Shown: one piece after another, positions 15,299-39,000 of the stretch
Position numbering within the stretch: position 1 is the first letter of the stretch
Layout: each line of letters begins with the position of its first letter
The notes under the pieces: model-generated
What the model was told of the DNA's origin: nothing
Database searches by the model: none
Seen by the model: only the letters and a program-made list of their open reading frames with translations
Virus record (IMG/VR): IMGVR_UViG_3300049215_000070
Source: a virus
Taxonomy: Duplodnaviria; Heunggongvirae; Uroviricota; Caudoviricetes
Length of the DNA: 64,000 nucleotides
Direction: 5' to 3' (one strand)
Program-made: the position numbers and the translations under genes

Positions 15299-15736
15299 AT
15301 GCCAAAAGCCAAGGATGCGTCAAAGAGATTTTTCACCGGGGTACCATGTAAGCATGGTCACATATCGGAGCGATGGACCAACAATGGACGTTGCATCGAA
15401 TGCCGGATGAATTATCAGGGAACCAGGAAAGACTACTATCGGCGCAAGGGTCGAGAGGCTTACTGGAATGATCCAGACAGAAAACAAAAAACCCTGGACA
15501 ACACCAGGAAGCAGCGCGGACTACCACAGCCGGAAAGACCGCCGCCAGCACACTGCGAATTGTGCGGCAAAAAATCAACCAGGAATTTATGCCTGGATCA
15601 CGACCACCAAAACGGCAGGTTTCGCGGCTGGCTATGCGGCAATTGCAATAGCGGTCTCGGTAAGCTTGGCGACACATCGGAAGCACTAATGAAAGCACTC
15701 GCTTACTTGGACAGGGCGTCACAGTCATGGCGGTGA
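15299..15736 (+). CDS. endonuclease VII-type HNH (homing) endonuclease, second copy
   Basis: LCLDHDHQNGRFRGWLCGNCNSGLGKLGD plus N-terminal C..H...C..C Zn motif. Lower GC than its flanks. Confidence 0.8.
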   Translation: MPKAKDASKRFFTGVPCKHGHISERWTNNGRCIECRMNYQGTRKDYYRRKGREAYWNDPDRKQKTLDNTRKQRGLPQPERPPPAHCELCGKKSTRNLCLDHDHQNGRFRGWLCGNCNSGLGKLGDTSEALMKALAYLDRASQSWR

Positions 15737-16968
15737 CCTATGTGAAAGACTTCTCCTTCCCCTCCGACTTTGGATTTTCCAAGAACGGCAGCGCTAGCGT
15801 CCCAGGAAAAGCCAAAGGGGGCCGCGCAACGACCCCACAAGCTTACCGCGAGGGCGGCAAGGTCCAGCCTGCGCAGTCGAAGTACTCCGGTCACGTCGCC
15901 AAGTCTGACGCCAAGCCGATGTCGGGTGCCGGGGCCAAGAATCTCTCCTACGGCAAAGCTTCGATGCCCGCCAAGACCACGATGGAAAAGAGCAGCGGCA
16001 TGCAGTCCCCGGCATTCAAGTCGGGCGGCAAGGCAGAGCGCAATGCGTCGATGATGAAGTCGCACATGGCGCGCCGCGCGAACGGTGGCGCGGCAACTGC
16101 CGAAGCCCCGGTTCCCATGGGCAAGAAATCCAGCTGGAACAAAGACGACGCCGTCAGCCCGGGAAGCTTCAAACGCACCCCGCCGAAGCAAGGCGCCAAG
16201 AACCCTGAATCCGCACGCGACAAGTTCGCCGCGAAGACCGCAGAGCCTGCCACCAAGCAAGAGGGCGACGTTGAGCGCATGAGCGGCTGGTCCGACTTCA
16301 AGAAGGGCGGCAAGGTAACGAAAAAGAAAATGGGCGGCGGTGTTCAAGACCGTTACGAGTCCAGCGACGGCTCAGGCTCTATGTCCAAGGACAAGACCGG
16401 CACCTCGAAGAAGATCAAAGGCACCCCAGCGTACAATTCGGGTGGTCGCATCAAGAGCATGGGCAAGTACGCGCACGGCGGCAAGGTCTGGAAAGACGGC
16501 AGTACTCAGAAACCCGGCGGCGACGCCAAGTACGAAAAGGCCGCGGGAACTCCGAAGCGGGACCACTTGTCGACCAAGGGCGAAGTCGAATCCGGCAAAG
16601 CAACCGGCAAGAGCACCGCACCCGCGCAGGGCGAGAAGCGCATGGCCCAAGGTGGCCTAAGCCGCGCCACCAGCCCGAAGCGAAACGCCGCGATTCACGC
16701 GAAGTCTCGCAAAGTATCTCCTGGCGCCTCGCTGGGCGCATTGGCGAGCGTTCTGGGCGGCGCGGGCGTACCGCATCAGCCGAGCGCACCGGGCATGGGT
16801 CCGTCGCCTCCTGGGATGGCACCTGGGATGGCACCTGGGATGGGTTCCCCTCCGGGTGGGCAAATGGGTGCAATGCGGCCTCAGGCGCCTGGCCCTGGCG
16901 CTCCTGCGATGGCTGGCGGTGGTTCCGTAAAACATGTAATGGTTCACCATATCTCGTACAAGAAGTAA
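15727..16968 (+). CDS. lysine-rich, highly basic low-complexity virion protein with ~8 GG[KR][VA] motifs and a Pro/Gly/Met-rich C-terminus
   Basis: 413 aa. Contains REGGKVQ, KSGGKAE, KKGGKVT, NSGGRIK, AHGGKVW, PGMAPGMAPGMG. No enzymatic motif. Confidence 0.6.
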   Translation: MAVTYVKDFSFPSDFGFSKNGSASVPGKAKGGRATTPQAYREGGKVQPAQSKYSGHVAKSDAKPMSGAGAKNLSYGKASMPAKTTMEKSSGMQSPAFKSGGKAERNASMMKSHMARRANGGAATAEAPVPMGKKSSWNKDDAVSPGSFKRTPPKQGAKNPESARDKFAAKTAEPATKQEGDVERMSGWSDFKKGGKVTKKKMGGGVQDRYESSDGSGSMSKDKTGTSKKIKGTPAYNSGGRIKSMGKYAHGGKVWKDGSTQKPGGDAKYEKAAGTPKRDHLSTKGEVESGKATGKSTAPAQGEKRMAQGGLSRATSPKRNAAIHAKSRKVSPGASLGALASVLGGAGVPHQPSAPGMGPSPPGMAPGMAPGMGSPPGGQMGAMRPQAPGPGAPAMAGGGSVKHVMVHHISYKK

Positions 16969-17038
16969 TTCCGGGATATTCGATATTCGCGAATCGCGAA
17001 CTCCCTGATTCGCATAAGATTCTAGGAAGTAATCGCTG

Positions 17039-18094
17039 ATGGCGTCTACCAATCAGGGCACGGTCAACCCGCTACTCACGACCGGCACCTACAACAACAT
17101 AGCGATTGACAACCGCACGTTCATTGACCGTGTGTACGGCGCGTTGAAGCTGCGCCCGCAGCAGATCACCGCCGAGATGATTTTGATTGGCCTGGACATG
17201 ATAAACCTCGTGCAGCTCGACATGCTGAACGACGCCGCGCCGCTTTGGACCCTTCGCAAGTACATCCAGCCCCTGTACCAGGGTCAGCAGCAGTACGTGC
17301 TCCCGCCGAGCACAAACGACGTCACGAAGGCGTTTTACCGGACGATGTCGAACCTGACCAGCTCCGCGACAATCACAAACTCGACCGCGTACTACCAGTG
17401 GAGCTTCACGCAGCCTACGCAGGTCACCACAATCAATCTGAACTGGCCGTCCGCGAGCTTCCCGGTGCAGTACCAGTACAGCCTTGACAACGTCAACTGG
17501 AGCACCGCGGCAAACTCAAGCAGCACTCACAACGGCATTGTTGGGTACAGCGCGCAAGACATCGACAACGCCAGCGCGTACCAGTACTGGCGCGTCATCC
17601 CGGCCACCAGCCAAAACGGGGTGCCGATTACGGTGCCCAATACTTTGCCGCTGACGCTGAGCGGGCAGGTGTACAATACCCCTGCGGACATAGAAATGTA
17701 CCGCATGAACCGGGACGATTACTGGAACCTGACCAACAAGACCTTCCAGGGGAGACCGCTGCAGTGGTGGATGGATCGTCAAATATACCCGCAGATGGAT
17801 CTCTGGCCCGCGCCAGACGCCACCGCGGCTCAGAATTTCATGGTGGTCTGGCGGCAGCGCATGATCGCCGACGCAGGCAGCCTGCAGAACACGCTAGAGA
17901 TCCCGCCGCGCTGGTACCTGGCGTTTTTTTATCGTGTCGCCGCCGAGCTGGCTTTTTGCACACCAGAGGTTGACCCCGAGGTCACCGGGCAGATTCAGGC
18001 CAAGTCGGATGCTCACTGGAAACGCGCCTGGGGTGAGGAGCGCGACAAGTCCCCAATCAAGTTCCAGACGCAGATCGGGGTTTATACTCGATGA
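17039..18094 (+). CDS. virion or tail structural protein (351 aa)
   Basis: ORF in the structural block. Asn/Thr/Gln-rich. Confidence 0.5.
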   Translation: MASTNQGTVNPLLTTGTYNNIAIDNRTFIDRVYGALKLRPQQITAEMILIGLDMINLVQLDMLNDAAPLWTLRKYIQPLYQGQQQYVLPPSTNDVTKAFYRTMSNLTSSATITNSTAYYQWSFTQPTQVTTINLNWPSASFPVQYQYSLDNVNWSTAANSSSTHNGIVGYSAQDIDNASAYQYWRVIPATSQNGVPITVPNTLPLTLSGQVYNTPADIEMYRMNRDDYWNLTNKTFQGRPLQWWMDRQIYPQMDLWPAPDATAAQNFMVVWRQRMIADAGSLQNTLEIPPRWYLAFFYRVAAELAFCTPEVDPEVTGQIQAKSDAHWKRAWGEERDKSPIKFQTQIGVYTR

Positions 18095-18806: not shown

Positions 18807-18809
18807 TCC

Positions 18810-19754
18810 ATGCGCAGTCTCGGAAACGGCATTAGAAACTTTTACGGTCAGCTGACCATAAACGCGGCCTCAGGTGAGGCTTCCGGCGGACTTATTGTCA
18901 ATGCAATCGCAGCCTTGAACGTACCCGCAGTTACGATCAACGGATCAAGTACCGCAGGACAGTCAAATGGTTTATTTGTGCTTGCTGGAGCTAACTCCGC
19001 AGACAGATCTTTAGATGTGCTAAATTCTGCTGGTTCATCGCGATTGTTTGGTATATTTGGCGACGGTCATTTCGCGCTCGGCTACAACGGCACGGCAAAC
19101 GTAATCACCGGAACGGCGGCGGGCAACATCACGATCAACGCACCGAGCAGCGGAACAGCACTTGTGACGACTGCCGGGACCGGCGGGTACGCGATTCAAG
19201 GTACCGGCGCCACCGGGGCAATTACCGCGCTATTTACTGGCGCATCAGGAGACGCGGGCAGACTGGCGGTGCAAGACGGCCAGTCCGGAAACCGCGCCTG
19301 GGAAATGCGTTCGGGCGGTGTCTCGGTGGGTGTTTTCGATATCTACGACCTGACGGCGGCAACCTCGCGGTTGCAGATCGACACATCAGGCAATGTCAGC
19401 GTGCCGAATGGCACCGGGTCGCTTAGCCCGGTCTATGCTGGCATCCCGGTTAACACGCAGGCTGGTAGCTACACGACGGTATTGTCTGATGCCAACAAAT
19501 GCATCAAGTTTACCGGCGCGTCCGCAGGCACGCTCACTATTGCCGCAAACTCCAGCGTCGCTTACCCGGTAGGCACGGCGATCACGTTCGTCAACAGAAC
19601 CACCAATACCTTGACCATATCAATCAACAGCGACTCCCTTGTGTATTCAAACACGGGCGCTGTCGGATCCAGAACGCTGGGCACTAACGCGATGGCAACG
19701 GCAATCAAGACCGACGCGACCATTTGGCTCATATCTGGTGCGGGTATCTCGTAA
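18810..19754 (+). CDS. tail fibre or tail spike-like protein (314 aa, Gly/Thr/Ala/Ser-rich)
   Basis: Composition and repeats of the TGTAAGNITINA type, typical of fibre shafts. Confidence 0.5.
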   Translation: MRSLGNGIRNFYGQLTINAASGEASGGLIVNAIAALNVPAVTINGSSTAGQSNGLFVLAGANSADRSLDVLNSAGSSRLFGIFGDGHFALGYNGTANVITGTAAGNITINAPSSGTALVTTAGTGGYAIQGTGATGAITALFTGASGDAGRLAVQDGQSGNRAWEMRSGGVSVGVFDIYDLTAATSRLQIDTSGNVSVPNGTGSLSPVYAGIPVNTQAGSYTTVLSDANKCIKFTGASAGTLTIAANSSVAYPVGTAITFVNRTTNTLTISINSDSLVYSNTGAVGSRTLGTNAMATAIKTDATIWLISGAGIS

Positions 19755-20329
19755 TGGGCATTCAGCAAATGCTGCTGGCGGCTGGCGGATTCGTCCCGGT
19801 CACGCGCACGTACACCACCGGAAATTCAGCAACTGAAACCCCTCCGGTCGGCGCAACGCATGTGCAAATTTCAGCGTGGGGTGGTGGCGGAAGCGGAGCG
19901 TACAATTCCGGAGCATACACGTATGGCGGCGGCGGCGGCGCTTACGTTCAAACCGCAGTTATATCGCTTTCCGGCATATCCACATTTACATACACAGTCG
20001 GCGTAGGTAGCACTACCCCAGGAACTAGTCCGCAAAACGGTACTGCAGGCACGGCTACCAGTTGCACAGCTACTGGTGTTTCGATTTCCGCAGGCGCTGG
20101 TAGCGGCGGAAATTACGCTGGGCCAGGAGGCTCAGGCGGCACAGGCAGCGGCGGAACAATCAACGCATCAGGAAGCGCAGGATCTAACGGTGGTGTTGGC
20201 GGCAACAACGGACAAGGCGTAAACGGCGGCAACCAGTTACCCGGAACCGCGCCTGGTGGCGGCGGCGGAACAAGTACCAGTCAGGGATATGCGGGCGCTG
20301 CTGGTCAAATTAGTTTTGCTTACACTTAA
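19754..20329 (+). CDS. glycine-rich fibre or collar-like protein
   Basis: TAATG coupling. Poly-Gly tracts GGGGSGAYNSGAYTYGGGGGAY. Confidence 0.45.
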   Translation: MGIQQMLLAAGGFVPVTRTYTTGNSATETPPVGATHVQISAWGGGGSGAYNSGAYTYGGGGGAYVQTAVISLSGISTFTYTVGVGSTTPGTSPQNGTAGTATSCTATGVSISAGAGSGGNYAGPGGSGGTGSGGTINASGSAGSNGGVGGNNGQGVNGGNQLPGTAPGGGGGTSTSQGYAGAAGQISFAYT

Positions 20330-20813: not shown

Positions 20814-20814
20814 T

Positions 20815-22220: not shown

Positions 22221-22895
22221 ATGCCAACCTCGATGACATTCACCAGCTTGCAGTCAGACGTCCAGACGTACATGGAGCGCGGCACCGTGCTCGATCCAAT
22301 CGTGTACGCGCAGCTGCCGGAACTCATCAATTTCGCTGAGCGTCGAATCTCGCGCGAGCTTAAGGTGCTTGGGTTCGTCGTCGCCGCCACATTTACTCTG
22401 CAGCCCGGTTTGGCGGTTTACGCCAAGCCAGACCGATGGAGAAAGCTCATATCCGTAAACGTGGGACAGTCTGCCACCGGCAACAGCGTACGGTCTCAGG
22501 TGCTTCCGCGCAGCTACGAGTACATTCGCGCTTACTGGCCGGATGACAGCCAAACGCTGACGACCACGTACGGAATTGCCGGACCACCCAAATTCTACGC
22601 GGAGTATAATTACCAGAACATCATCGTCGCGCCGACGCCAGACGCCGCGTACCCTGCGGAGATCGTGTACTACGAGGAGCCTGCGCTGCTCGACGCCACG
22701 AACACCACCAACTGGATCACGCAGTACGCCCCGAACCTGCTGCTGTACTCCACCTTGTTGGAGTGCGCCCCGTTTCTGAAGAACGACTCCCGCATAGCGA
22801 CCTGGCAGGCGCTCTACGACCGCGCCGCGGCAACCCTCGACAGCGAATCCAAGGCCGGTATCTTGGATCGTAATCCAACAAGGCAAGAAACGTGA
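22221..22895 (+). CDS. hypothetical tail or baseplate-associated protein (224 aa)
   Basis: ORF between the lysis genes and the tail fibre. Confidence 0.45.
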   Translation: MPTSMTFTSLQSDVQTYMERGTVLDPIVYAQLPELINFAERRISRELKVLGFVVAATFTLQPGLAVYAKPDRWRKLISVNVGQSATGNSVRSQVLPRSYEYIRAYWPDDSQTLTTTYGIAGPPKFYAEYNYQNIIVAPTPDAAYPAEIVYYEEPALLDATNTTNWITQYAPNLLLYSTLLECAPFLKNDSRIATWQALYDRAAATLDSESKAGILDRNPTRQET

Positions 22896-24133
22896 CCACG
22901 TACACAAATATATTTACAGGCGCTTTGGTTGCGCCCGCTCTTGCTGCGTACAATTCGATTACGCTTACGGCGAACCTGCAGCTGCAATGGCCGCTGGAAA
23001 CCGCGCCCAACTCCAACCTTTGCACGCCGCTAATCGACATCAATAGCTCGACCTCGGGATCGTATGGGCTAATTCTTCCGCCTGCGACTTCCGTAGGAGT
23101 CGGCACGTTCATCATCGTAAACAACCTGAGCGCGTACCCGCAGGCAGTTTACAACAACAGCGGCGCCATTATTGTGGCATCTCAGGCCTCAGGATCTGTT
23201 TTCTTTTACTACCTTCAGAACAACACCACCGCCGCGGGCACATGGTTTGCTTTCCAGTACGGCTCTGCAGTATCGACACCCTCAGTAGCCGCCATCGCTG
23301 GCCCAGGATTGGTTGCCTTAGGGTCGCAGCTGGGGCAGAACATGAGCGTTACGACGCTTTCTTCGCCATACACCATAGGTGTCAACGACCGAGATAAGTT
23401 TTTCAACTGGAACGCAGGCGCTGGAACCGTAACGTTGCCGCAGGCCGCGACCGCTGGTGGCGGGTACTATGTGCAACTGCGCAACTCTGGTAGCTCAATC
23501 CTATCCATCGCGCCCGTAGCGTCTGACACCATTAACGGCGGTTACAACAGCGCGACCCCGCTGCCGCTAAACCCTGGTGACAGTTGTTTCATTGTGACTG
23601 ACGGCACGGTTTGGTACACCATTGGCCTTGGCCCATCCATTCAGGCGGCGTTCAATTTCGTCACCATCAGCGTGACCGGGTTGTCCGGCACGTACACCCT
23701 AAGCGGCACGCAGCTGAACCAGGTCGGGTACCGATTCACAGGCACCAAATCTGGCAACCTTGAGATCATCGTACCCTCGACCAAGCAAGAGTACTGGGTC
23801 AACAACCAGACCGACAACACATACACGCTCACCATAGGAACCGCCAGCCAAACGTCCCCAACGCCGCCGACCATTGCTTACAACGGCAGCTCGATTTTCT
23901 ATTGTGACGGATCTAACGTTTACAACGCCACCCCGTCGAGCGCCATCACCTCGATACCGATTCCGATTGCGCAGGGTGGCACCAACTCGACCACCGCCGC
24001 TGGGGCGCTTACCAACCTTGGCGGAACCTCCATCGGCACCTCGTTGTTTACTGCCGTAAGCAACGCCGCCGCGCAGCAGGCTATCGGCGCACCGTCGACC
24101 GCTGACATGTTCCTCTGGGCTATGGTCCTGTAA
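22892..24133 (+). CDS. tail fibre protein with three internal ~100-aa repeats and a C-terminal PIAQGGTNSTTAAGALTNLG motif
   Basis: Conserved fibre motif (I/L)PIxxGGTGATTAAGARxNLG near the C-terminus. Confidence 0.65.
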   Translation: MTTYTNIFTGALVAPALAAYNSITLTANLQLQWPLETAPNSNLCTPLIDINSSTSGSYGLILPPATSVGVGTFIIVNNLSAYPQAVYNNSGAIIVASQASGSVFFYYLQNNTTAAGTWFAFQYGSAVSTPSVAAIAGPGLVALGSQLGQNMSVTTLSSPYTIGVNDRDKFFNWNAGAGTVTLPQAATAGGGYYVQLRNSGSSILSIAPVASDTINGGYNSATPLPLNPGDSCFIVTDGTVWYTIGLGPSIQAAFNFVTISVTGLSGTYTLSGTQLNQVGYRFTGTKSGNLEIIVPSTKQEYWVNNQTDNTYTLTIGTASQTSPTPPTIAYNGSSIFYCDGSNVYNATPSSAITSIPIPIAQGGTNSTTAAGALTNLGGTSIGTSLFTAVSNAAAQQAIGAPSTADMFLWAMVL

Positions 24134-25998
24134 TGGCGCTGATCCCCCTTGCATCCGCTCCTGGGATACAGCGAGATGGAACATTTTTGGCATCTACCGC
24201 GCACACGGACGGGCAGTGGTGCCGCTGGCAGCGCGGGCTGCCGCGAAAGATCGGCGGGTACAAGGTCATTCAGCCGTACCTGACGGGCATCGAGAGACTG
24301 TTTTTTACCCAGGCGCAAAGCGGTTACCGGTACCTTGCCGCGGGAAATGCGAACGGCATCGATACTTTTACCGTTGACAACTTTGGCGTCTGCTCAAGCG
24401 TTCAGAATCCGAAGTTTCCTGCGACCACCAACCCGACGACCACGGGCCTGCCGACGAACACGGTGAACCTGCAGCCGTACACTCAGATCAACAGCTGGCA
24501 GATGGAGTCGCAGTTCGACAACGCCACCAACCAAACGCTGCTGTTTCTATTCGCCAATCAGAACCTACTGGACCCCGCAAACGGAGAAAACTTTCCGCTG
24601 TACTCGACGCCGATCTACAGCCCAAACGGCAACGGTAACTTTGCAACGTTTACTGGCTCCGTGAGCGGGACCACGCTGACCGTATCTGGCGTTACCGGCA
24701 CAATATCAATAGGACAATACCTGACTGGATTTGGCATTCCTTCCGGCACGCTCATTACTGGCGGCAGCGGCACATCGTGGACGCTGGGTGCCAACTTAGG
24801 GACAATCGGCGCAGAGGCCATGTCGTCCGGTTCGATCTTCCAGGTGCAGGGGTACGGCACCGGCAGCGACGGTCACGGCGGGACTCAGCAGGCATTATTT
24901 CCCAACGGCATCAGCGGGGGCATGGTCAGCCTTGCACCGTACATGATCGTCTACGGGAACAACGGTTTTTTCGCGTGGAGCAGCCCCGGTTACCCTACCG
25001 ACTTTGTGGGCACTTCCTTGGGATCATTGTACGTTGGCGCTACCGAGATTACCAACCAGAAAATAATAAAAGGTTTCCCGCTTAGGGGTGGTGGAGGCTA
25101 TTCGCCCGCCGGTATCTTCTGGAGCGTAGACAGCGTCGTCCGCGCGACCTTTATTGGTGTCACAAATGGCACATGGCAATTCGACCAGCTCACGACGCAG
25201 TCGAGTCTGCTCAGCGACCGGTGCATTGTTGAGCACGACGGCGCGTTCTACTGGGCCGGTGTGGATCGATTTTTGATGTACAACGGCGTGGTTGGAGAAA
25301 TACCAAACTCGATGAACCTTAACTGGTTTTTTGACGGCATCAATACCACGTACGCCAGCAAGTCTTTCGCGATGAAAGTGCCAAGGTACGGCGAGATCTG
25401 GTGGTGCTACCCGCGCGGTAACAACACCGAGTGCAGCCACGCGGTGATATACAACTACCGAGAAAAGTCTTGGTACGACACACCGCTGCCAAACACCGGG
25501 CGCAGCGCGGGATTGCACGCCGACAACCTGGTAGGAAACCTGATGGCAGGTATTTTGCCGTACACGTCGAGCGTCAGCGGCACAACGCAAACGTACTACA
25601 ATATGTGGGATCACGAAATCGGCACCGACGAGATTAACGGCGTATTTCAAAATGCCGTAAACTCGTATTTTACGACCGCGCCCATTACGAATTACAACGC
25701 GCAGCCTCCGAACGCCGCGACCACGAGCGTTGAGCTGCTTGAGCCAGATTTTATCCAATCGCAGAACATGACCGTCAGCGTTTTGAAGCAGAACAACGCG
25801 AACGCCCCGGTAGTTACAGGGTCGGTGGTCACGCTTGAGCCAGATCCCACTAGCACCGGCACATTGAATCAGATAGTGCCGCTCAAAGACACCGCCAAGA
25901 TCATTCGTATTCAGGTACAGAGCAACGTCGTCGGTGGGAACTTTCAGGCCGGTAAGTCGATGCTCACGATCAACGCGGACGGCGAGCGGAGCACGTAA
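24133..25998 (+). CDS. large tail or virion structural protein (621 aa)
   Basis: TAATG coupling to the fibre gene. Asn/Gly/Thr-rich. Confidence 0.5.
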   Translation: MALIPLASAPGIQRDGTFLASTAHTDGQWCRWQRGLPRKIGGYKVIQPYLTGIERLFFTQAQSGYRYLAAGNANGIDTFTVDNFGVCSSVQNPKFPATTNPTTTGLPTNTVNLQPYTQINSWQMESQFDNATNQTLLFLFANQNLLDPANGENFPLYSTPIYSPNGNGNFATFTGSVSGTTLTVSGVTGTISIGQYLTGFGIPSGTLITGGSGTSWTLGANLGTIGAEAMSSGSIFQVQGYGTGSDGHGGTQQALFPNGISGGMVSLAPYMIVYGNNGFFAWSSPGYPTDFVGTSLGSLYVGATEITNQKIIKGFPLRGGGGYSPAGIFWSVDSVVRATFIGVTNGTWQFDQLTTQSSLLSDRCIVEHDGAFYWAGVDRFLMYNGVVGEIPNSMNLNWFFDGINTTYASKSFAMKVPRYGEIWWCYPRGNNTECSHAVIYNYREKSWYDTPLPNTGRSAGLHADNLVGNLMAGILPYTSSVSGTTQTYYNMWDHEIGTDEINGVFQNAVNSYFTTAPITNYNAQPPNAATTSVELLEPDFIQSQNMTVSVLKQNNANAPVVTGSVVTLEPDPTSTGTLNQIVPLKDTAKIIRIQVQSNVVGGNFQAGKSMLTINADGERST

Positions 25999-27807: not shown

Positions 27808-29265
27808 ATGTCGAAACTCAGAGAAATCTACAAGGGCTCATTCAAAGGGCGTCGTAACAAGCACGACGTGGTAACGGCGTACGACGGCGGATACATGGAT
27901 TTTTCCACGTCCTCTTTCGATCCGAGCACGGTTGTTCCCACGGCGGTTGACACCGGGTACGGCAGCGGCTACAACCCCAGCACCGACCCCAATGTCGCCG
28001 GTTACACGGGATCACAAGACAGCAGCCTTGCGGCGCCCGCGGCCACGGGGCTGGATCAAAATTACCTGTCGACAATCAACGCCGAGCTTGCCGCCGACCC
28101 TACCGGAGAAAACGCCGCCGCCAGTTTTGATAGCAGCAAATCAAAATCTGGCTCATCTTCTGGCTCATCTGCCGCGTCAAGCGCCGCAGGTGGTGCGCTT
28201 GGTACGCTACTCAAGGCGCTGGGTCTTGGGAGCGGAAACACCAGCGCGCAAGGTATCACCGCGCTGGCCGGGCTGCTCTCTGCCGCTGGGCAGTACAAGC
28301 AAAACTCCGCGTACGCGCCGACGTTTGCGCCGCCCGCGTTATTTGGCGGGACCTCAGGGACCACATCCGGCAACACCGCAGGCATCGCGTCGACCGGGTA
28401 CGGACCCGCTGGCGGCTACAACTACGCCAACTACAAAGGCCTGGTAGCGGGCGCCCCCGGGCTGGGTTACGCGCCGCAGACCGCGACCACGCCCACGATC
28501 CCAAATTACTACACCTACGGTCAGGGTCCGCAGCAGAGCTTTTTCACCACGACGCCGTCGAGCGCCACGCAGCCCACCGCAATGAAAAAAGGCGGCAAGG
28601 TCAGCACGCCGCAGCGTTTTGCCATGGGCGGGTTCAACACCGGCATGATGCCGCCCGTCCACCCCAACATGGGCACGATCACCCCCAGTATGGGGGTGCC
28701 TAGCGCCAATCCAATGGCGGGCGGTATTACGACCAGCGGCCCGTCAAACCCGACCGGCACGCCATCCTTTGGCGCAATGCCCGCGCAACGCGGCGCGCAA
28801 GTGCGCCCGGCGGTCCCGGCCACAATGCCTCCGCAGCAGACCCACACGCAGCCCATGCCGGGTCGAGCCTTTGCGAATGGCGGCAGCGCCGCGCCTCAAG
28901 CGTCGTCCTCGTCGTTTACCAGCCAGGTGCCTCAAAACCTGTCTGGGGTGCTCTCAGGGATGCGCAAAGCCTCTACCCCTAGTCACGCACCCCCGCTGGC
29001 TACGGGCGGCGCCTTGGCCTCCGTAAGCCGTCACGTCAAGGGTCCGGGGGATGGTACTAATGACAAAATTCCGGCACGCCTATCGCCCGGAGAATTCGTA
29101 ATTTCTGCGGATGTTGTAAGCGGCATCGGTAATGGTGACAATGGTGCAGGCGCCAGAAAACTCGATGCGTTTATGAAAAACGTCAGGAAGCACAAAGCAG
29201 AAAATGGATCTAAGGGTAAATTGCCAGCCAATGCTAGGCCAGTGGCAAGTTATCTAGGGAAGTAG
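27808..29265 (+). CDS. internal virion (ejection) protein, paralogous to upstream gene
   Basis: Shares NYYTYGQGPQQSFF. Contains KKGGKVS and FANGGSA motifs. Confidence 0.5.
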   Translation: MSKLREIYKGSFKGRRNKHDVVTAYDGGYMDFSTSSFDPSTVVPTAVDTGYGSGYNPSTDPNVAGYTGSQDSSLAAPAATGLDQNYLSTINAELAADPTGENAAASFDSSKSKSGSSSGSSAASSAAGGALGTLLKALGLGSGNTSAQGITALAGLLSAAGQYKQNSAYAPTFAPPALFGGTSGTTSGNTAGIASTGYGPAGGYNYANYKGLVAGAPGLGYAPQTATTPTIPNYYTYGQGPQQSFFTTTPSSATQPTAMKKGGKVSTPQRFAMGGFNTGMMPPVHPNMGTITPSMGVPSANPMAGGITTSGPSNPTGTPSFGAMPAQRGAQVRPAVPATMPPQQTHTQPMPGRAFANGGSAAPQASSSSFTSQVPQNLSGVLSGMRKASTPSHAPPLATGGALASVSRHVKGPGDGTNDKIPARLSPGEFVISADVVSGIGNGDNGAGARKLDAFMKNVRKHKAENGSKGKLPANARPVASYLGK

Positions 29266-30473: not shown

Positions 30474-32291
30474 ATGGCTGAGCAAGTCAACAGCATGGGC
30501 ATTCCACTTGAAGATGCCGAGCTGGACGATCCAAGTAGCAACATAGACGCCCCTGACCCGTTGCTTGACGAGTCCCCTCGAAGCGGCGCGCTTGCGGCTG
30601 TCACTCAAGGTGGCGCACGCCGAGCGGCCAAAGATCGCTACGACGAGAACAACGCCGAGATGGACGATTTGCGTCAGCAGTACGCAAGCACCGCCAAACA
30701 GCAAGCGGACGCGTACGCTCAGCAGAAAGCGCAAATTGACGCAGCGACCGCGCGCCTCCAGGGCATGCAGGTTGGCCCCAGCGACCAGGAGAAGCTGTAC
30801 CGTATCGCGGCGGCTGGCGCCACACCAAACCACAACGGCGTCGACATCGCCGGGATCAACGCCACGCAGGCCGACGTACTCAAAGAACGGCGCGAAGCGG
30901 AGCTGCAAAAGCAAAACCTTCTCGCTCAGTACGGATTTCAGGGTCCGCAGGCCACCATTGGCGCAACCAATGCAAAGTTGAATCAGCTCACGCAGCAGCA
31001 GCGCATCGTCGCCGGTCAGCTCAACAGCGCAGGCAACCAGCAATTCCGTGGGCAAGCCAACATGCCGTTTGGGTTAACCCAGAACGCCGACGGCTCCGTT
31101 TCTGTCGCCCCTGGCATGGAGCAGTACTGGAACGAAAAATCACTGGCTGCCATGTACGGCAAAGGCTACATGAAGCCGAACCCGGACGGATCTAAGTCCT
31201 GGATATCGCTCGCGCCTTTGGCCGCATCTTTGCAGCGCGGGCAGCAACCGCCTCAGCAAGCGCCGCAACAGGCACCGCAACAGGCACCGCAAACGCCGCC
31301 ACAGCAAGGTGGGGGAGCAATAACTCCTCAAGCACCTCGTCCAGTCGCGGCTGCGGCACCTTCTGCGGCACCGGCAGCAACAGCCCCGCAAATCCCATCC
31401 GCACCTACGGCACTCCAAGCGCCAGCAAAGCCTCTGCCCAGCCCGTATGACGATTTGTTCATACCGTCCACGGTGCTAGACCCGAAATACGGCGCGCTTA
31501 CGCCTGCAACCAAGCCCGCGTACGTTGCCACCGCGGCGCAGGCTTTCGATCCCGCGTACTTCAAAGAGTACCAGTTTCAGGCGAACAATTTTGGCGACAT
31601 GGATGTTCGCAAAAAAAACCTGGAGAAAGAAGCCGCCGAGCTTGCGGAAGCGGGCAACAGCGCAAAAAGCGTCATCTACAATTACGGTCAGGCGCTGCAT
31701 CAAATGGACCAATTGAACGACCCGCAGCTTCTCAGCGGACCCGCGGGCGCAAAAATTGGCGCGTTCGAGAACACGCTTCGCGGCGTGCTGCCAGATACCG
31801 TAACGCAGCAGCTTTTTAGCGACCCAAACCTGAAAAAACTCGCCACTCAACAGGACACAGACAAGTACTTTTTGAACGCGGCGACAACCGGCCTAAAAGC
31901 TATTTACGGTGGCCGCATCACGAACATGGAAGTGCAGCAACGACTCAAGAGCCTGCCCAGCAATAACCTGCTCCCGGCGGTGACGCGCATGCTAGCCGCG
32001 GCGCAGGCCGAGGTCGCTCAAGATACGGTCAACAAGGGCAAGCTATTTGGCGCTTACGTGCGCAAAGGTGGAGATCCCGCACCGGGAACTTTCAACACCT
32101 GGTACGAGGCAAACTTTGACCCGTTTGGTGAAAGCCGTCTCAAGCAAAATTTGAATCAGCTGCAAACCGTTGCCCCTGCAAAAACCGCCGCACCCGCTGC
32201 GCAAAACCCGCTGGTTGCTTACTACAGCGGCCCGTACGCCGCCTGGGTTGCTGGCGGTAAAAAAGGCCCGCAACCCCCGAGACCTCGGTAA
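30474..32291 (+). CDS. internal virion protein (605 aa) with QQAPQQAPQQAPQ repeat
   Basis: ATG 2 nt after the upstream stop. Gln-rich. Confidence 0.5.
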   Translation: MAEQVNSMGIPLEDAELDDPSSNIDAPDPLLDESPRSGALAAVTQGGARRAAKDRYDENNAEMDDLRQQYASTAKQQADAYAQQKAQIDAATARLQGMQVGPSDQEKLYRIAAAGATPNHNGVDIAGINATQADVLKERREAELQKQNLLAQYGFQGPQATIGATNAKLNQLTQQQRIVAGQLNSAGNQQFRGQANMPFGLTQNADGSVSVAPGMEQYWNEKSLAAMYGKGYMKPNPDGSKSWISLAPLAASLQRGQQPPQQAPQQAPQQAPQTPPQQGGGAITPQAPRPVAAAAPSAAPAATAPQIPSAPTALQAPAKPLPSPYDDLFIPSTVLDPKYGALTPATKPAYVATAAQAFDPAYFKEYQFQANNFGDMDVRKKNLEKEAAELAEAGNSAKSVIYNYGQALHQMDQLNDPQLLSGPAGAKIGAFENTLRGVLPDTVTQQLFSDPNLKKLATQQDTDKYFLNAATTGLKAIYGGRITNMEVQQRLKSLPSNNLLPAVTRMLAAAQAEVAQDTVNKGKLFGAYVRKGGDPAPGTFNTWYEANFDPFGESRLKQNLNQLQTVAPAKTAAPAAQNPLVAYYSGPYAAWVAGGKKGPQPPRPR

Positions 32292-34255
32292 TGGCAAACG
32301 ATACGGACTTACTTGCGGCCTTAAAGGCCGCGCATGACGCCGGGGATGACGAGGCGGCGGCGGCTATTGCCGCGCAAATGTCGGCGCAACCGGTGACGCA
32401 TGAACCGGTCAAACAACCGGACACGTTGACCATTACTCCATCAGATCCATCAGAGCAACCAGGTGGCGAGCACTGGATGGAAAAATACGGCCCGACGTCA
32501 GGTATGAGCGGGCTGGATAAATTTCGTGCGGGAATTGGTCAATCTTTTGTTGACACCGGGCGAGGAATATCGCAATTATTTGGTGGTCAATCCAAGTCGG
32601 ACACCGACGAGCAGCGCCGATTAGACGCGCCCCTCGACAGGACCGGCGCTGGATTGGCCGGTAACATCCTGGGAGGCGTGGCGCAATCCGCGTTGCCCGG
32701 GTTGGGCGCCGAGGCAGCAGGCGCAAAGATCGCCTCAGGGCTTGCGACAAGTCCCGGCGCGCTGCAGGCCGCGCAGGCCATTTACCGCATCGCGCGTCCC
32801 GCCGCAACCGGCGCCGCGTACGGAGCGTTAGCACCAGTCGGAAGCAATGAGACGCGCGCAGGGAACGCCGGTCTGGGCGCCGCTGCGGGTGAGGTCGGTC
32901 AGGTGCTGGGTAACGCGGGCGCGAATGTGCTGCGCTCCGGTGAGGATGCGCTTACAGCTGGCGCTCGCAAAGGCGCCGACATCGCCCGCAAGTACGGCAT
33001 TCCGTTAAGTATGCCGCAGCTCGCAGGCAAATTTACCGGTTTCGTTGGGGACACGCTTGATAAACTGCCGTTCAGCGGTGCGAGCGACCGACGAGACGCG
33101 CAGCGAAGCGCATTCAATGACGCGCTGGGTCGTACCGCCGGAATACCAAACGCGCAAGGCGCGATCAACACCGACATGGTTGACCACGCGCGAGACACCG
33201 TAGGCAGCGCCATTGGCAACATGGCGAGCAACCGTGTCGCGCTTGTTACCCCGAAACAAGTTCAAGGTGTCACGCAGCTTCTGCAGGACGTGAATGACGT
33301 CTCGACGCCTGAGACGGCGCGCGTAGTCAACAACTACGCCAACAAAATGTTCGGTATGGGCGCGTCCGGTCCTTCCAAAGTCATCCCCATCAACAATGCG
33401 CTTCCCGGCGGACCCATCGCGCAAATACCTGGCGACGCTTGGCGCGAACAGAACACACAAATCGGGAACCACATCCGCAGGCTTGGGCCAAACGACGGCG
33501 ACCTGAAGTACTACCTGGGCGAGCTGCAAGACCATTACATGGATACTATGCAGAACGCGATGTCGCCCGAAGAATTCAATCAATTCCAAAGTTTGCGCGG
33601 GCAATACCGCAACAATCGAACCATCGCCCCGCTTGCTGAAAAAGCAGGCGACGAAGGTATCAACCCGTTGCTGGTGCAAGCGAGAGCTATTTCGGCCAAA
33701 AACAACCGCGGCGACGTTGGAGAGCTTGGGGATTTTGCCAAGTCAATGCTCGCCAAAAAATACCCGGACAGCGGCACCGCGCAACGCGCGCTGATGTACT
33801 CCGCGATTACCGGCGGATTGGGCGCTGGGGCTGGCGCGTTACTAGACGACGAAAATCACGGCACGGGCGCGGCATATGGAGCGCTCCCTGGCGCGGCGAT
33901 GATCGCTGGCGGGTTGGCCGGTCGAGGTCTGAATTCTCAGGCGCTCAGTCGGTTGTATCAGGCGCGCATGCCGGAGCCTGTTGCGGGCACGATTCGAGAC
34001 CTGGCGGCTCGTAGCCCGGTTGCGGCGCAGCGCGCGGAGCAAGTAATCGCGCCACAGGAAGGATACGCAGACGGCGGCGAAGTCAAAAAATCAACCTTCT
34101 GGGATCTTGTGCAGCAAGCTGTCAAAGAGCTAGCTTCACCCAGCACCAATGCACCGCCCACGCCGACACCAGCACCCGGCACAGTAGCATCAGGCAGTGT
34201 AGGCCAAGACTTTGACAATAAGGTGAACCAAGCCGTGCAAGGCGCCGGTGGTTAG
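32291..34255 (+). CDS. internal virion (ejection) protein (654 aa) with C-terminal YADGGEV motif
   Basis: TAATG coupling. Gly/Ala-rich. Confidence 0.5.
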   Translation: MANDTDLLAALKAAHDAGDDEAAAAIAAQMSAQPVTHEPVKQPDTLTITPSDPSEQPGGEHWMEKYGPTSGMSGLDKFRAGIGQSFVDTGRGISQLFGGQSKSDTDEQRRLDAPLDRTGAGLAGNILGGVAQSALPGLGAEAAGAKIASGLATSPGALQAAQAIYRIARPAATGAAYGALAPVGSNETRAGNAGLGAAAGEVGQVLGNAGANVLRSGEDALTAGARKGADIARKYGIPLSMPQLAGKFTGFVGDTLDKLPFSGASDRRDAQRSAFNDALGRTAGIPNAQGAINTDMVDHARDTVGSAIGNMASNRVALVTPKQVQGVTQLLQDVNDVSTPETARVVNNYANKMFGMGASGPSKVIPINNALPGGPIAQIPGDAWREQNTQIGNHIRRLGPNDGDLKYYLGELQDHYMDTMQNAMSPEEFNQFQSLRGQYRNNRTIAPLAEKAGDEGINPLLVQARAISAKNNRGDVGELGDFAKSMLAKKYPDSGTAQRALMYSAITGGLGAGAGALLDDENHGTGAAYGALPGAAMIAGGLAGRGLNSQALSRLYQARMPEPVAGTIRDLAARSPVAAQRAEQVIAPQEGYADGGEVKKSTFWDLVQQAVKELASPSTNAPPTPTPAPGTVASGSVGQDFDNKVNQAVQGAGG

Positions 34256-34371
34256 CGGCGGCTTGATCCCAGGCGTCTGAGAGCGCGTACGCAGCCAGGC
34301 ACCCAAAAAACCCAATCAGCATCAAAATTAGCATGGTCATCTCCTGTTAAGATGACCCAATCTACTGCGTC

Positions 34372-34908: not shown

Positions 34909-34909
34909 A

Positions 34910-36040
34910 ATGTCAAACACACCCGATGAACGTTCAGTCAAGATCGCTAAACTCCACGCCAAGGGCCTTTCCCAAAGGGAAATAGCCAAAAAACTCGGCA
35001 TCGCGCAAAGCACCGTCTCGGAGCGCCTCAAAAAAGTAGGCGGCTCATTCCCCGCACCAGACGGGCATTACGTCAAAGCAACCTCCACCCTTTACAGCCC
35101 AGACGGCGAGATCAAGCTTCAGTGGGTGAAATCTAGCCTAGATGAAGAGGCGCGTCAAGCAGCAGAGAAGGCCGCATTTGCGGCACTGTGCGAGACGCTG
35201 CCACGGTATGTGCCGACCAACGGCCCCGGGCACACCGACGCGGAGCTTGCGAACCTGTACGTGTTTACAGATTGTCACGTAGGCATGCTGGCATGGGGCA
35301 AGGAAACCGGGGACGACTGGGACACGGGAATCGCTGAGCGCACGCTGATTCGAACTTTCGAGGCAATGATCGCGGGCAGCCCCAAGGCGCGGGTTGCTAT
35401 AATTGGGCAGATGGGGGATTTTTTGCATTTTGACGGTTTACTGGCCGTTACCCCCACATCCAAGCACGTACTTGACGCCGACAGCCGATTCTCAAAAATT
35501 GTCAAGATCGCGATACGGGTGCTGCGGTACATCATCGACATGGCGCTTCTCAATCACGAGGAGGTCCACGTCGTCATGGCGGACGCGAATCACGACCCGG
35601 CGAGCCAGGTTTGGCTGCGGCACATGTTCACCGCGCTGTACGAGAACGAGCCGCGCGTCAAGGTCAACGACAGCGAAAAGCCTTTCTATGCGTACCAGCA
35701 CGGCGAAACCATGATCGGGTTTCACCACGGGCACACGCTGAAAAAAGAAAAGCTCCCGCTGCTGCTTGCCACGCTGTACCCCAAGATGTGGGGCAACACG
35801 CTCAAGCGATACTGCCACACCGGTCATCTGCACACGGTGGACGAGGTCGAGGCCAACGGCATGAAGATCGTGCAGCATCCCACTATTGCCGCCAAGGACG
35901 CGTACGCGGTTCGTAACGGCTGGGTAAGTCAGCGACAAGCATCATGCATTACCTATCACCAGTCTTATGGCGAAGTCGGTCGCACCGTCGTCTGCCCCGA
36001 GATGTTCGAGACAATTAATGGACCCACAAACCCTCATTGA
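34910..36040 (+). CDS. HTH (sigma70 region-4/LuxR-like) fused to a calcineurin-like metallophosphoesterase domain
   Basis: GLSQREIAKKLGIAQSTVSERLKK helix-turn-helix. Phosphoesterase motifs DCHVG, GDFLHFDG, ANHD, HHGH, GHLH in canonical order. Confidence 0.6.
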   Translation: MSNTPDERSVKIAKLHAKGLSQREIAKKLGIAQSTVSERLKKVGGSFPAPDGHYVKATSTLYSPDGEIKLQWVKSSLDEEARQAAEKAAFAALCETLPRYVPTNGPGHTDAELANLYVFTDCHVGMLAWGKETGDDWDTGIAERTLIRTFEAMIAGSPKARVAIIGQMGDFLHFDGLLAVTPTSKHVLDADSRFSKIVKIAIRVLRYIIDMALLNHEEVHVVMADANHDPASQVWLRHMFTALYENEPRVKVNDSEKPFYAYQHGETMIGFHHGHTLKKEKLPLLLATLYPKMWGNTLKRYCHTGHLHTVDEVEANGMKIVQHPTIAAKDAYAVRNGWVSQRQASCITYHQSYGEVGRTVVCPEMFETINGPTNPH

Positions 36041-39000
36041 CAAATACCGCGGCGTTCTTGGGCTTACCGGGCACGCCGCTCAGTCCACCGCAGCGAACAT
36101 CGCGGGCGGACTTGTGGGCCTTGGAAACCTTCCCAGAGGCATAGACGCCGCTGAGTCTGCCCGTCAGCTGATTACCGACAAGCTTTCCCCAGGAGAACCC
36201 GACTCGCAAACCATTGGCCTGATACGGGACATCGCCCCGGCCTACCTGGCCGCGGCGCGCAGCCCGGTCGCCAAGGCGGCGCACGCCGTCGGGGACGCGT
36301 ACGACAAAAGCGTCGACACCTACGCCGACTTAGCGTCGCGCTACCTGGGCGCCCCGGCTGGGGGTGAGGTGGCCGCATTGGGCGCCGCGCTGCCAAACGC
36401 CGCCTTTCCTGAATCAAAAGCCGCCAAAGCCACCGAGTACGCCGCCCCCGCCGCCGAATTGCTGAGCAAGTACCCGGCGACCCCGGTGCTGCCAGACGGC
36501 TCGACCCTGCGCACGCTGGCCCGTGAGGGCGCCGCAAACGCCCGCAGAGCCGACGAAGGCTTACCCCCTCCCGATGTGCTCGCAAGCGATTTCGCAGGCA
36601 GGCAGGCCGCGCACGAGGGCGCCGTGGCGCAACGTAACGCGGACCCGGCGTACATCAAGGCCAAGGTACCGGCCACGAGCGTAGACCCGTCATTGTACCC
36701 ATCTAGTTTTAGCCCGCCGGACAACGCGGAGGCGTACGTCGCCATGGATCCGCAAACCGGGCAGCACATCGGGCATGTGACGTTCGTCAAGCGCGGTGAC
36801 GGCGTATCCAGCTTGCGCATGGACGTCGCCCCCACTTATCAGGGGCAGGGCATCGGCAGCGACTTGCTGAATGACGCCATTGCAAACGCGCACGACCAGG
36901 GCCTGCCGTACCGGTCAGACACTCAGGTAAGTGTTCCGGCAGCCAAAACTTACAGCAAGCTTCCCGGGGCGATCCGCAACGAGGACGTGGATCACATGAT
37001 TGACCCGAATGACGGTCACGTCGGGGTATCCAGCAACGGTCGCGCGGTGTTTGAGATTCCGCCGAGTGCGGATGCGGACGACGCGACACCGGACGAGATG
37101 CCGCACTTCAACCCGAACAGCTACATCGGCAGCCAGGCGTACGCCGAGGGCGGTGAGGTTGCGCCTGCATTGGGGGACATTGGCGACCTGATTGCGCGCT
37201 ACGCAACCAAACCGCTGCCCGGGTTACCTGCCAAGGTGCAGGTGCCGGGAGTTGGCGGACTAGAGGTTGGTCCAAACCCCAAAATCCGCCAGGTAGCGCA
37301 AAATTACATGGACGAGGTCGGAATCAAAAACCCGCCTCAGCCCATTTACGCCAAGGCCGACCCGGTGCGCGGTAAAGCGATTGCCGCCGCCTACGACGCC
37401 GCGCAGCACAACCCCAGCGACCCGGACGTCAAGGCCTCGTACGACGCGCTTATCAAGGAAACCTTGGCGCAGTATCAGCACATCAAAAACGCAGGACTTA
37501 AGGTAGATCTTATTCAGCCCGGTCAGGCTGACCCGTACGCCGCCTCGCCGCGACTCGCGGTAGAGGATATCAACCGCAACAACCACATGTGGGTATTCCC
37601 GACGTCAAGCGGATTCGGTACCGAGGGCGCGGCGCCGATGGATCACCCACTGCTGGCGGATAGCGGCGAAACAATTAGCGGGCAACCCGCAACCGCGAAC
37701 GACATTTTTCGGGTAGTTCACGATTATTTTGGGCACGCCAAGGAAGGAGTCGGATTTCGCGCCGATGGCGAAGAGAACGCCTGGAATCAGCACGCGCGCA
37801 TGTACTCGGATCTAGCCAAACCGGCGATGACCGCAGAGACGCGCGGGCAGAACAGCTGGGTGAACTTTGGTCCTCACGCCGACGCGAACAAAGGCGCGAG
37901 CGCCGCCAGCACCGTGTACGCACCGCAGAAGGCTGTCATTTTGCCGGATGTTTACAATGATCCCGACGCCGGACGGACGATGGATTTTTTGCACATGTCC
38001 AACCTGACAGACCCGCAGGTTACGCTTGACCCTGCGGCGTACGGCACAGGCATGAAAGGCGCTGAGGCGCGCAGGGGCGGAACCAAAACCATCAGCCTGT
38101 ACCCTGCGAACATAGACCCCAAGGATATCGAGCTGCCGCTGCAAGGAAAAACACCGTACCGTGTCTCGGTTCCCGCGAGCCAGATGTACGACATGTCGAA
38201 CGATCCGCTAGGATACCGCTCGATAACGCCCAGCTACAGCGACGCCGAGGACGCCATCAGGGGTGCGGGATGGGCCGGGTATTACACACCGGATCACGAA
38301 GACCCAAGACAGCGCGGGCAGGCGCGGCTGTTTGTGCCGACGACCGCGACACGCCTTGACCCCATTGACGCGCCCGGGCCAACGAAAGCCGCCGCAGCGA
38401 AAAGCAGCGGCTTGTACGACGACACACTGGACACCTCAGATTTCTCTACCGGTGGCCTGGTTCAAAAATACGCCGACGGAGGTGAGGCAGCGGTCGCGCT
38501 CGATGATGTCGCAAACCTTATCGCCAAGTACGGCAAAGATGCCGCCCCAGCGCAAGCGGAGCATCTCGCGAATGCGGTCTCCGAGAACGGCTCCGCTACC
38601 TACAACCCAACCACCGGAGACGTCCACAGCAGCGGCTACGCCGTTCCGCACGATATTAGCCGCAGTGTCGCCCTAGACGCGCCGCCTACCGCGGGCGACA
38701 TCCATGACTTCATGCTGCAAAACCAGGACGCATTCGACAACCCGAAGGCGGCAGTTCACGTCGAGAGCGACGGTAACGGCAATCACTTCATCCACGTCGC
38801 TCACGTCGAGCCAGATTTTGATAGCGCAATGGCTGCCGCCAAGGCATTCGACGCGCCGGGAGTACGCGAGCTTCATACTGGCAACAATTTTCCTGCTGAT
38901 GGTCCCGCCGGGATCAGCGATGATGCGGATACGGGGATAGAGGATTACTTGGCGGGATCAAAGATACCAGAGACAAACCTACCGGCGGAACTGGACACAG

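Follow-up and report, generated by a model that had tools for sequence, protein, structure and literature searches.

A short hydrophobic-AxGG motif in four predicted virion proteins of a podophage-like genome and its association with a tape-measure-type cassette

The viral record IMGVR_UViG_3300049215_000070 (Caudoviricetes) was analysed as one stretch of 64,000 nucleotides, hereafter the window, in which nearly all genes lie in the + orientation and four large genes encode proteins sharing a short motif centred on a Gly-Gly pair. The motif follows the consensus Phi-A-x-G-G-x-Phi, where the first Phi is Y, F, M or H and the last is V, A or I; its core is written Phi-AxGG below. The carriers are a Lys-rich protein of 413 amino acids (aa), a 485-aa protein ending in a cassette of the tape-measure type, a 654-aa ejection-type protein and a giant protein of 1386 aa. 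They are probably virion proteins, as judged by synteny and matches to PHROG families, and we treat the phage as podophage-like on account of its gene content. The motif is enriched beyond chance, conserved in homologues, located in linkers and built into the cassette, and it may mark junctions at which proteins leaving through the tail are recognised or cut. The motif-bearing genes and their features are as follows.

15727..16968, + strand: Lys/Gly/Pro-rich protein of 413 aa, between head and neck genes, with about ten motif copies
15844-15864, 16015-16035, 16297-16317, 16432-16452 and 16468-16488: strict copies in the Lys-rich protein, YREGGKV, FKSGGKA, FKKGGKV, YNSGGRI and YAHGGKV
15808-15828, 16075-16095, 16324-16344, 16642-16662 and ~16906-16926: looser copies in the Lys-rich protein (about five)
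27808..29265, + strand: Gly/Ser/Pro/Met-rich protein of 485 aa
28582-28602, 28618-28638, 28870-28890 and 28996-29016: motif copies MKKGGKV, FAMGGFN, FANGGSA and LATGGAL in the 485-aa protein
28996..29265, + strand: tape-measure-C-like cassette, aa 397-485 of the 485-aa protein, LATGG...GPGDGTNDKIPARLSPGEFVISADVVSGIGNG...GARKLDAFM
32291..34255, + strand: all-alpha putative 'DNA ejection protein' of 654 aa (phrog_26400)
34064-34084: single motif of the 654-aa protein, YADGGEV, followed by the helix KSTFWDLVQQAVKEL (~34097-34135)
35967..40127, + strand: giant multidomain protein of 1386 aa
36723-36962: GNAT domain, aa 253-332 of the giant protein
37140-37202: motif-plus-helix unit 1 of the giant protein, with YAEGGEV at 37140-37160
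38442-38531: unit 2 of the giant protein, a double motif plus helix, with FSTGGLV at 38442-38462 and YADGGEA at 38469-38489
40104-40124: C-terminal copy of the giant protein, AYSSGGSV, directly before the stop

Distribution and conservation of the motif

Scored with the strict pattern [FY]xxGGx[VAI], the four proteins (2,938 aa) contain 11 copies, against 0.50 +/- 0.69 expected from within-protein shuffles, none of which reached 11 (0/5000). The remaining proteome, comprising 75 open reading frames (ORFs) and 15,106 aa, contains a single strict match against 1.8 expected, located in a Gly-rich tail protein, and the four proteins differ from this remainder with p = 2e-8 in a Fisher test. A six-frame scan of the genome places 11 of its 17 strict matches inside the four genes, and in the Gly-rich proteins encoded at 19724-20329, 26283-27710 and 24133-25998 the motif is not above expectation. 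The preliminary description of this DNA, which had first reported the motif, had raised the possibility of an equal frequency in other proteins or in shuffled sequence, and these counts show neither; with the pattern of that description, five copies are observed in the four proteins and 0.006 expected.

The instances quoted there (YAEGGEV, YADGGEA, YADGGEV, (M)KKGGKV, FANGGSA and the copies of the Lys-rich protein) are all present, and the FSTGGLV and AYSSGGSV copies are additional to them. The carriers number four and not five as had been given, and the best-conserved core is A-x-G-G with a preceding hydrophobic residue (Y/F/M/H), in place of the K/E/S at position +2 that had been emphasised. 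A DNA word described as recurrent, GGCGGCAAGGT, does have five exact occurrences, but it merely spells GGKV in the preferred codons, and a non-virion ORF holds one of the five. The motif copies occupy disordered linkers, domain junctions or C-termini, and some form the exact C-terminus of their protein (AYSSGGSV in this phage, RYMDGGRV in phage RW and KYMGGN in the relative L002, each directly before the stop).

For the Lys-rich protein, which has no match in Pfam, PHROG or NCBIfam, 81 metagenomic homologues were available, with about 14 Gly-Gly pairs per protein. Counted around these pairs, Y, F or M occupies position -3 in 49% of cases (background ~8%), Ala stands at -2 in 36%, and V, A or I follows at +3 in 51%. 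Across the 63 full-length homologues, at least six copies keep their positions, for example F100-K90-K-G100-G100-K-V and Y100-A90-H96-G100-G98-K-V (the numbers being per cent conservation of the residue). Many of the homologues (P0046, P0047, P0052 and P0063, for example) also have two features that are absent from the protein in the window, double motifs of the form FAKGGHATTPQRYADGG in tandem and a cluster of Cys residues, KGCSCKMCSGG, and all of them share a Met/Pro-rich tract, PGMAPGMG, and a His-rich C-terminus, VKHVxVHHxSH. These features may point to metal binding.

The 654-aa protein matches phrog_26400 over residues 11-564 (E 2.4e-29) and the 'DNA injection protein' of phage Xfas53 (E 1e-7), and its gene lies downstream of adaptor and tail genes in a synteny that is kept in the relatives L004 and L005, so that a role as a podophage ejection-type protein appears probable. 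Nearly all homologues above ~37% identity carry [Y/M/H/L]-A-[D/E]-G-G followed by KS[ST]FWDLV at the same position, and the more distant ones are without the whole C-terminal extension. In the AlphaFold2 (AF2) model, which is all-alpha with a predicted local distance difference test score (pLDDT) of 73, the motif falls in a linker of residues 563-600 with pLDDT<50, ahead of a short helix (603-615). A Foldseek search of this model against the PDB returned nothing at E below 0.1. The protein itself ends in -GG (window positions 34238-34252), as do many family members (P0124-P0157), which end in -GG or -GGR (VQGAGG, VANSGG or ...SGGR before the stop); lambda gpH ends in -GGGR.

In the giant protein, each [FY]A[DE]GGE[VA] copy is followed by a helix of the form ..AL.D...LIA[KR]Y and stands at the head of a domain. 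The internal duplication proposed earlier is confirmed by comparing YAEGGEVAPALGDIGDLIARY with YADGGEAAVALDDVANLIAKY, and since the two units share just 39 of 63 nucleotides, it is old. In the orthologues of L002, L004 and L005, [FYH]A[DE]GG plus the helix is still found at domain junctions, and the domains behind the units are reordered or duplicated among relatives. A GNAT acetyltransferase domain was also flagged in the L005 orthologue, and the counterpart in the cyanophage MinM2 is a protein of 2803 aa annotated as RelA/SpoT; the giant proteins seem to carry exchangeable enzymatic cargo. One conceivable target of the GNAT domain would be the GGK sites of the Lys-rich protein.

Across the three syntenic relatives (L002, L004 and L005), the 485-like, 654-like and giant proteins all keep the motif at matching places as their surroundings drift. 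In the Synechococcus phage MinM2, whose portal is 29% identical to that of the window, the motif occurs in four virion-module proteins. No copies were found in the distant SU10/P22-like phage L006, and none of the form Phi-AxGGxPhi in gp7, gp20, gp14 and gp16 of P22. The idea of a real, selected common signal is thus supported by enrichment, by positional conservation in homologues and by recurrence in the four cyanophage proteins. The carriers, described earlier as otherwise unrelated, are not wholly so: the 485-aa protein holds a tape-measure-type cassette that includes the motif, and the copies of the giant protein belong to a duplicated motif-plus-helix unit.

A tape-measure-type cassette in the 485-aa protein

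The last motif copy of the 485-aa protein, LATGG, forms the N-terminal edge of the cassette and lies 11 residues ahead of GPGDG. The domain follows the consensus AxGG...GPGDGxSDxIPAxLxxGEFVxxAxxVSxxGNG...GAxKL, and in the cassette alignment (A1) the G-G, GPGDG, GE.V and GA.KL positions are invariant. The C-terminus of the 485-aa protein matches the tape-measure PHROGs 6090, 25241 and 5448 (E 2e-5 to 3.5e-4), and tblastn with the cassette finds annotated tape-measure proteins of Burkholderia, Pseudomonas, Gordonia, Rhodococcus and Arthrobacter phages, so that the cassette is similar to annotated tape-measure cassettes. A profile built from it matches 17,468 cluster representatives (E<=1e-3); among the representatives listed, the match is C-terminal in 150 of 150, in proteins of 150-1400 aa. 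Within 149 representatives of the cassette family, [FYM]AxGG occurs 270 times against 17.6 expected, a 15-fold enrichment. The domain has no model in Pfam or NCBIfam, and a PDB sequence search with the C-terminus gave a single chance lectin match (E 0.7). In an AF2 monomer model, the C-terminal 149 residues, which include FANGGSA and LATGGAL, are disordered (pLDDT 57). Further, the Lys-rich and 485-aa proteins share with the cassette family a Met/Pro/Gly-rich composition and the double-motif spacing ..NLGxYxxGG[KR][VL]...

Proteins of the 485-aa family open with a basic segment, about 20-25 residues long, that leads into YDGG or [F]DDGG (window 27808-27900; L004 5223-7181; L005 5482-7341), an arrangement that recalls the propeptide of P22 gp7. 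The 485-aa protein is alone among the carriers in having a YDGG near its N-terminus, at residues 25-28. GenBank gives the orthologues bearing the cassette (OQ594354.1 13026-13292, OL906435.1, OR260089.1) inconsistent labels, namely 'calcium-binding protein', 'extracellular solute-binding protein' and 'tail length tape measure protein', none of which is backed by evidence here.

The same arrangement recurs in tape-measure proteins of long-tailed phages. The cassette profile matches those of the Burkholderia phage phi1026b (6.5e-6) and the Pseudomonas phage MP22 (1.2e-4; Z=1e5), which read FHLATGGAVWGPGTSTSDSIPAQLSNGEFVV...ARFAAGG and FGFASGGHVRGPGTSTSDSIPARLSDWEYV...RHATGG, respectively. Lambda gpH has the same architecture, with ...RGYATGG as the second flank, and the lambda and phi1026b C-termini align colinearly over the cassette stretch (E 9e-4). 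Cassettes with flanking motifs were also found in tape-measure proteins of Gordonia, Arthrobacter and Rhodococcus phages, such as the Gordonia phage Orchid (NFATGGPVKGPGTETSDSIPARLSRNEYV...KLATGG) and the Rhodococcus phage Jflix2 (GFATGGAVDGPGTGTSDSIPARLSAGEHV...AFAAGG), in both of which the unit precedes an SLT lysin domain. A Phi-AxGG directly N-terminal to the GPG...GE[FY]V core is common to the 485-aa protein, MP22, phi1026b, Orchid, Kukla and Jflix2, and the tape-measure proteins that we examined carry at most three motif copies, nearly all of them beside the cassette. As judged from these comparisons, the motif flanks a widespread and so far unnamed cassette of the form Phi-AxGG / GPGxGxSDxIPAxLSxGE[FYH]V / ... 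/ Phi-AxGG in tape-measure proteins of long-tailed phages, and the cassette appears also in a tape-measure-like protein of podophages with an SU10-type adaptor.

For two phages, the processing of the tape-measure protein has been studied. T5 pb2 is cut after R1127, as mapped by mass spectrometry, and the 92-residue pb2C is retained by the tail (PMC10038345). The sequence around this site is ...NSFVPR↓AEGGMMYPGVSYQMGEHGTEVVTP (the arrow marking the cut), so that the bond lies directly before A-E-G-G; beyond it come AEGGMMYPG and then a GE.G.E motif in GEHGTEVVTP. T5-like phages infecting Klebsiella, Proteus and Vibrio keep both R-A-x-G-G and GE[HKN]G.E..P at identities as low as 37%. Lambda gpH is likewise cleaved, with the site and the protease unknown fifty years after the discovery and a product, gpH*, of ~78 kDa (PMC12617516). 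This cleavage falls in the same neighbourhood as the FATGG motif of gpH: a computed cut before A734 yields 79.8 + 12.5 kDa, which is compatible with the reported size, though not decisive. Residues ~690-817 (gpHC), cassette included, are unresolved in the lambda virion structure (PMC12617516), as is the cassette region in that of T5 (PMC10038345). BLASTP of T5 pb2C against lambda gpHC gave no similarity. Since neither BLAST nor profile comparison returned a match, the link to T5 is drawn from pattern and position only.

The 485-aa protein thus resembles the tape-measure C-fragments of siphophages (T5 pb2C, lambda gpHC) in the order of a hydrophobic or Gly-rich stretch, Phi-AxGG and GE[FH].., to which lambda adds a second Phi-AxGG, in carrying the cassette within a protein predicted to exit through the tail, and in a region that is disordered here and unresolved in their virions. 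The T5 protein is known to be cut at the motif and that of lambda near it. Unlike them, the 485-aa protein is not a long helical ruler, its genome shows an SU10-type adaptor and no tube, sheath or frameshifted-chaperone genes, its cassette ends the protein without a hub-binding coiled coil behind it, and the motif copies are spread over four proteins. We rejected the 485-aa protein as a true tape-measure ruler, given its Gly/Ser/Pro/Met-rich composition, its predicted-disordered C-terminus, its adaptor- and ejection-type neighbours, and the fact that no tail-tube, sheath or chaperone families were found in the genome with Pfam, PHROG and NCBIfam.

Two resemblances to enzymes were also set aside. 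The stretch SDSIPAxLSxGEFV recalls the Ser-Lys nucleophile region of S24/S26 peptidases (GDSMxPxLxxGDxV), but there is no Pfam S24/S26 match at E<=0.1, lambda and T5 lack the Ser, and the tape-measure versions have no conserved Lys. In T5 pb2C (L009, residues 1128-1219), the supposed metallopeptidase motif GEHGTEVV was rejected as a clue to function, its sole His not being conserved. Among T5-like relatives (L012, L014, L015, L016), Proteus phage M4H10_20 has Lys in the place of that His and Vibrio phage 70E37.6 has Asn, which makes a conserved zinc-binding role doubtful.

Possible roles of the motif

Tentatively, and at less than even confidence, we read Phi-AxGG as a junction or processing signal of proteins that exit through the tail, cut before its Ala where it is accessible. 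The element would have been inherited with the tape-measure-type cassette, carried here by the 485-aa protein, and solitary copies would then have spread into linkers, domain junctions and termini of the three further proteins. The junctions that it would mark belong to proteins presumed to be kept unfolded inside the particle and to be threaded through the tail on exit. A common factor may recognise the element there and, following the T5 pb2 map, cleave it on the N-terminal side of the Ala (x↓AxGG). Such cutting could free modules, dividing the giant protein into GNAT, middle and C-terminal parts and releasing the tape-measure-like C-fragment, and maybe basic peptides from the Lys-rich protein. 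The protease could be encoded by the host, autocatalytic or an unrecognised phage protein, none being evident in the genome. This processing role is suggested by the cut mapped in T5, by where lambda gpH is cleaved, by the placing of the copies in linkers and junctions, and by the polyprotein-like make-up of the giant protein. The preliminary description had likewise named a protease site, at the double Gly, as one of three options, the others being a capsid-targeting signal and a common binding module. The protease proposal gains indirect support from the mapped R1127↓AEGG cut and the AxGG kept in T5-like phages, but its register does not hold, as T5 is cut before the Ala and not after Gly-Gly.

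Several observations weigh against processing. No protease was found in the window with Pfam, PHROGs and NCBIfam, nor in the precomputed Pfam matches of the relatives, and a prohead maturation protease was found neither in 9591-15263 nor elsewhere in the window with the same databases, nor in the relatives, although a remote homologue could be missed. Nor is it known which proteases cleave pb2 in T5 and gpH in lambda. T5 has R ahead of the Ala where the copies here have Y, F, M, H or K, which makes a single shared specificity doubtful, and the extreme C-terminal copies of this phage, RW and L002 would make no sense as cleavage sites. The podophage cassette profile gave no direct match to lambda or T5, whose cassettes appear tied to the podophage domain by pattern and by the phi1026b bridge only. 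Finally, cleavage and presence in the virion are predictions for this phage and its relatives.

Although improbable when taken by itself, an uncleaved docking peptide is nearly as likely as a processing signal. The motif would bind one partner, maybe by adding a strand to an existing sheet; candidates are the portal or tail lumen, the GEFV-type domain within the 485-aa protein and some other internal protein. Such binding would bring the ejection proteins together in the head and set the order in which they leave, with the multiple copies of the Lys-rich protein acting as multivalent glue. Its traits are those of a short linear motif, namely short length, disordered surroundings, several copies and a conserved core between variable flanks, and exact C-terminal copies suit docking better than cleavage. 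The motif-domain-motif layout of the tape-measure proteins suggests that the flanks pack on the cassette, the sharing by four proteins, here and in MinM2, suggests one partner, and docking would also accord with the failure to find a protease gene. However, no partner was identified, neither of the virion structures, that of lambda (PMC12617516) or that of T5 (PMC10038345), resolves the cassette, and docking leaves the exact coincidence of the T5 cut with the motif unexplained. Docking and cleavage are compatible if a single factor binds the motif but cleaves just a part of its copies.

A rather unlikely explanation is that of a structural hinge or module boundary without a specific reader, in which a Gly-Gly turn between two short strands would be a fold-on-assembly element carried along by the duplication and shuffling of motif-helix-domain units and tape-measure-like segments, and the T5 cut would reflect linker accessibility. 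The duplicated and reordered domains behind the motif in relatives of the giant protein speak for such a hinge, as do the composition and double-motif spacing that the Lys-rich and 485-aa proteins share with the cassette family and the different residue before the Ala in T5 and in this phage. Nevertheless, the A-x-G-G positions are kept over deep divergence while the linker drifts, which argues for direct selection on the motif, and a 15-fold enrichment in the cassette family is hard to obtain from hinges alone. Chance in a Gly/Lys-rich and GC-rich sequence, for which the composition of the Lys-rich protein (15.5% Gly, 12.8% Lys) and the preferred-codon nature of GGCGGCAAGGT could be cited, is so improbable that we regard it as already refuted by the shuffles (11 against 0.5), by the lack of enrichment in other Gly-rich proteins and by the positions conserved in homologues.

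Among other known systems, the carriers compare with podophage ejection proteins (P22 gp7, gp20 and gp16, and Xfas53), which they resemble in the homology of the 654-aa protein and in a gene block that follows adaptor and nozzle genes; unlike them, the P22 proteins gp7, gp20, gp14 and gp16 are without the motif. According to its RefSeq note, P22 gp7 loses 20 N-terminal residues to the host protease OpdA at SYPE↓KGGKGG, which is a precedent for host-dependent trimming and likewise involves processing beside Gly-Gly. We rejected the gp7 site as a true instance of the motif, however, as its register and residues differ.

Systems of capsid targeting and prohead proteolysis include the T4 internal proteins with gp21, phiKZ, SPN3US and the adenovirus protease with its consensus (M/I/L)XGG↓X, which is likewise centred on Gly-Gly. 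In these systems too, one short signal is shared by unrelated packaged proteins, very basic DNA-associated ones included. The motif described here differs in being internal or C-terminal in place of an N-terminal leader, in a genome where no prohead protease gene was found, and the sole mapped analogue, T5, is cut before the Ala in a tail and not a head protein. The double-glycine leaders of bacteriocins, processed by ABC exporters with a C39 peptidase, share just the Gly-Gly dipeptide and were rejected, as the copies here stand in no N-terminal leader and do not follow LSxxELxxIxGG, and the window shows neither a C39 peptidase nor an ABC transporter.

The carriers belong to known kinds of protein (tape-measure-like and podophage ejection), and in the open-access papers searched we found no account of the motif, of the flanking architecture of the cassette or of the fact that the T5 cut coincides with it; nothing on the motif is contained in work on the Riverwalk-cluster Caulobacter phages, on cyanophage A4, on JBD30 or on ejection proteins. 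A wider generalisation, which we consider unlikely, is that Phi-AxGG is a general junction code specifying x↓AxGG cuts, by a host enzyme or autocatalytically, in siphophage tape-measure and podophage ejection proteins. If so, it would cover phages of Gram-negative and Gram-positive hosts, with the pieces acting in the cell envelope, the gpH*/gpHC boundary of lambda would lie between F733 and A734, the 1386-aa protein would be a polyprotein and the Lys-rich protein a precursor of basic internal peptides. The findings bear on two open questions, namely how ejection proteins are chosen, stored unfolded and released in order, and where and how tape-measure proteins are processed. One short motif, present at the T5 cut, in lambda-like, Mu-like and actinophage cassettes and in ejection-type proteins of a podophage clade, offers a mutable target in all of them. 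The analysis also exposes a domain family of more than 17,000 cluster representatives without a Pfam model and a conserved Lys-rich family of no known role, and even if the motif were a mere hinge, the annotation of cassette-bearing proteins would improve.

Genomic setting

Further genes noted in the window are the following.

2983-4587: large terminase
4963-7635: portal, 890 aa
8091-8549: Cpn10/GroES-like gene (PF00166, E 3e-5), downstream of the portal gene and also in the relative L019
11878-12795: major capsid protein (Mu gpT / Phage_capsid_4)
12876-13364 and 15299-15736: two Endonuclease_7 genes (HNH-type, probably homing), within the head module
Between the Lys-rich gene and the adaptor: neck and tail genes, GH108 endolysin and GTA-type holin
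22221-22895: SU10-type adaptor
After the adaptor: large proteins of 413, 621, 475, 485, 365, 650 and 654 aa
34372-34908: SPFH/Band_7 gene, between the 654-aa and giant genes
34910-36040: HTH and exonuclease gene (phrog_704), overlapping the first 74 nt of the giant ORF
49719-50363: RNA-ligase-like protein, among replication/early genes
52638-54467: 609-aa protein with a GH5 cellulase domain (E 5e-24), among replication/early genes

A nucleotide search of the region against deposited phage genomes gave no match. At the protein level, the portal is 49% identical to those of the Riverwalk-cluster Caulobacter phages RW, KcrB, RLK and GB2A (PMC11053796) and 28-39% identical to roseophage, pelagiphage and freshwater cyanophage portals. 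The SPFH and HTH/exonuclease pair is kept at the same place in L004 and L005. The second Endonuclease_7 gene lies directly upstream of the Lys-rich gene and overlaps it; the relative L018 has an Endonuclease_7 gene at the first site and L019 has none, so that the two genes look mobile.

The window consists of a phage genome unit of 58,993 bp plus a wrap of 5,007 bp. Positions 1-5007 are repeated at 58994-64000 with three mismatches, at 4876, 4889 and 4943 (equivalent to 63869, 63882 and 63936), and the repeat could be a terminal redundancy, a concatemer of variants or an effect of assembly. The three mismatches cluster around the 3' end of the ORF at 4590-4907, upstream of the portal gene.

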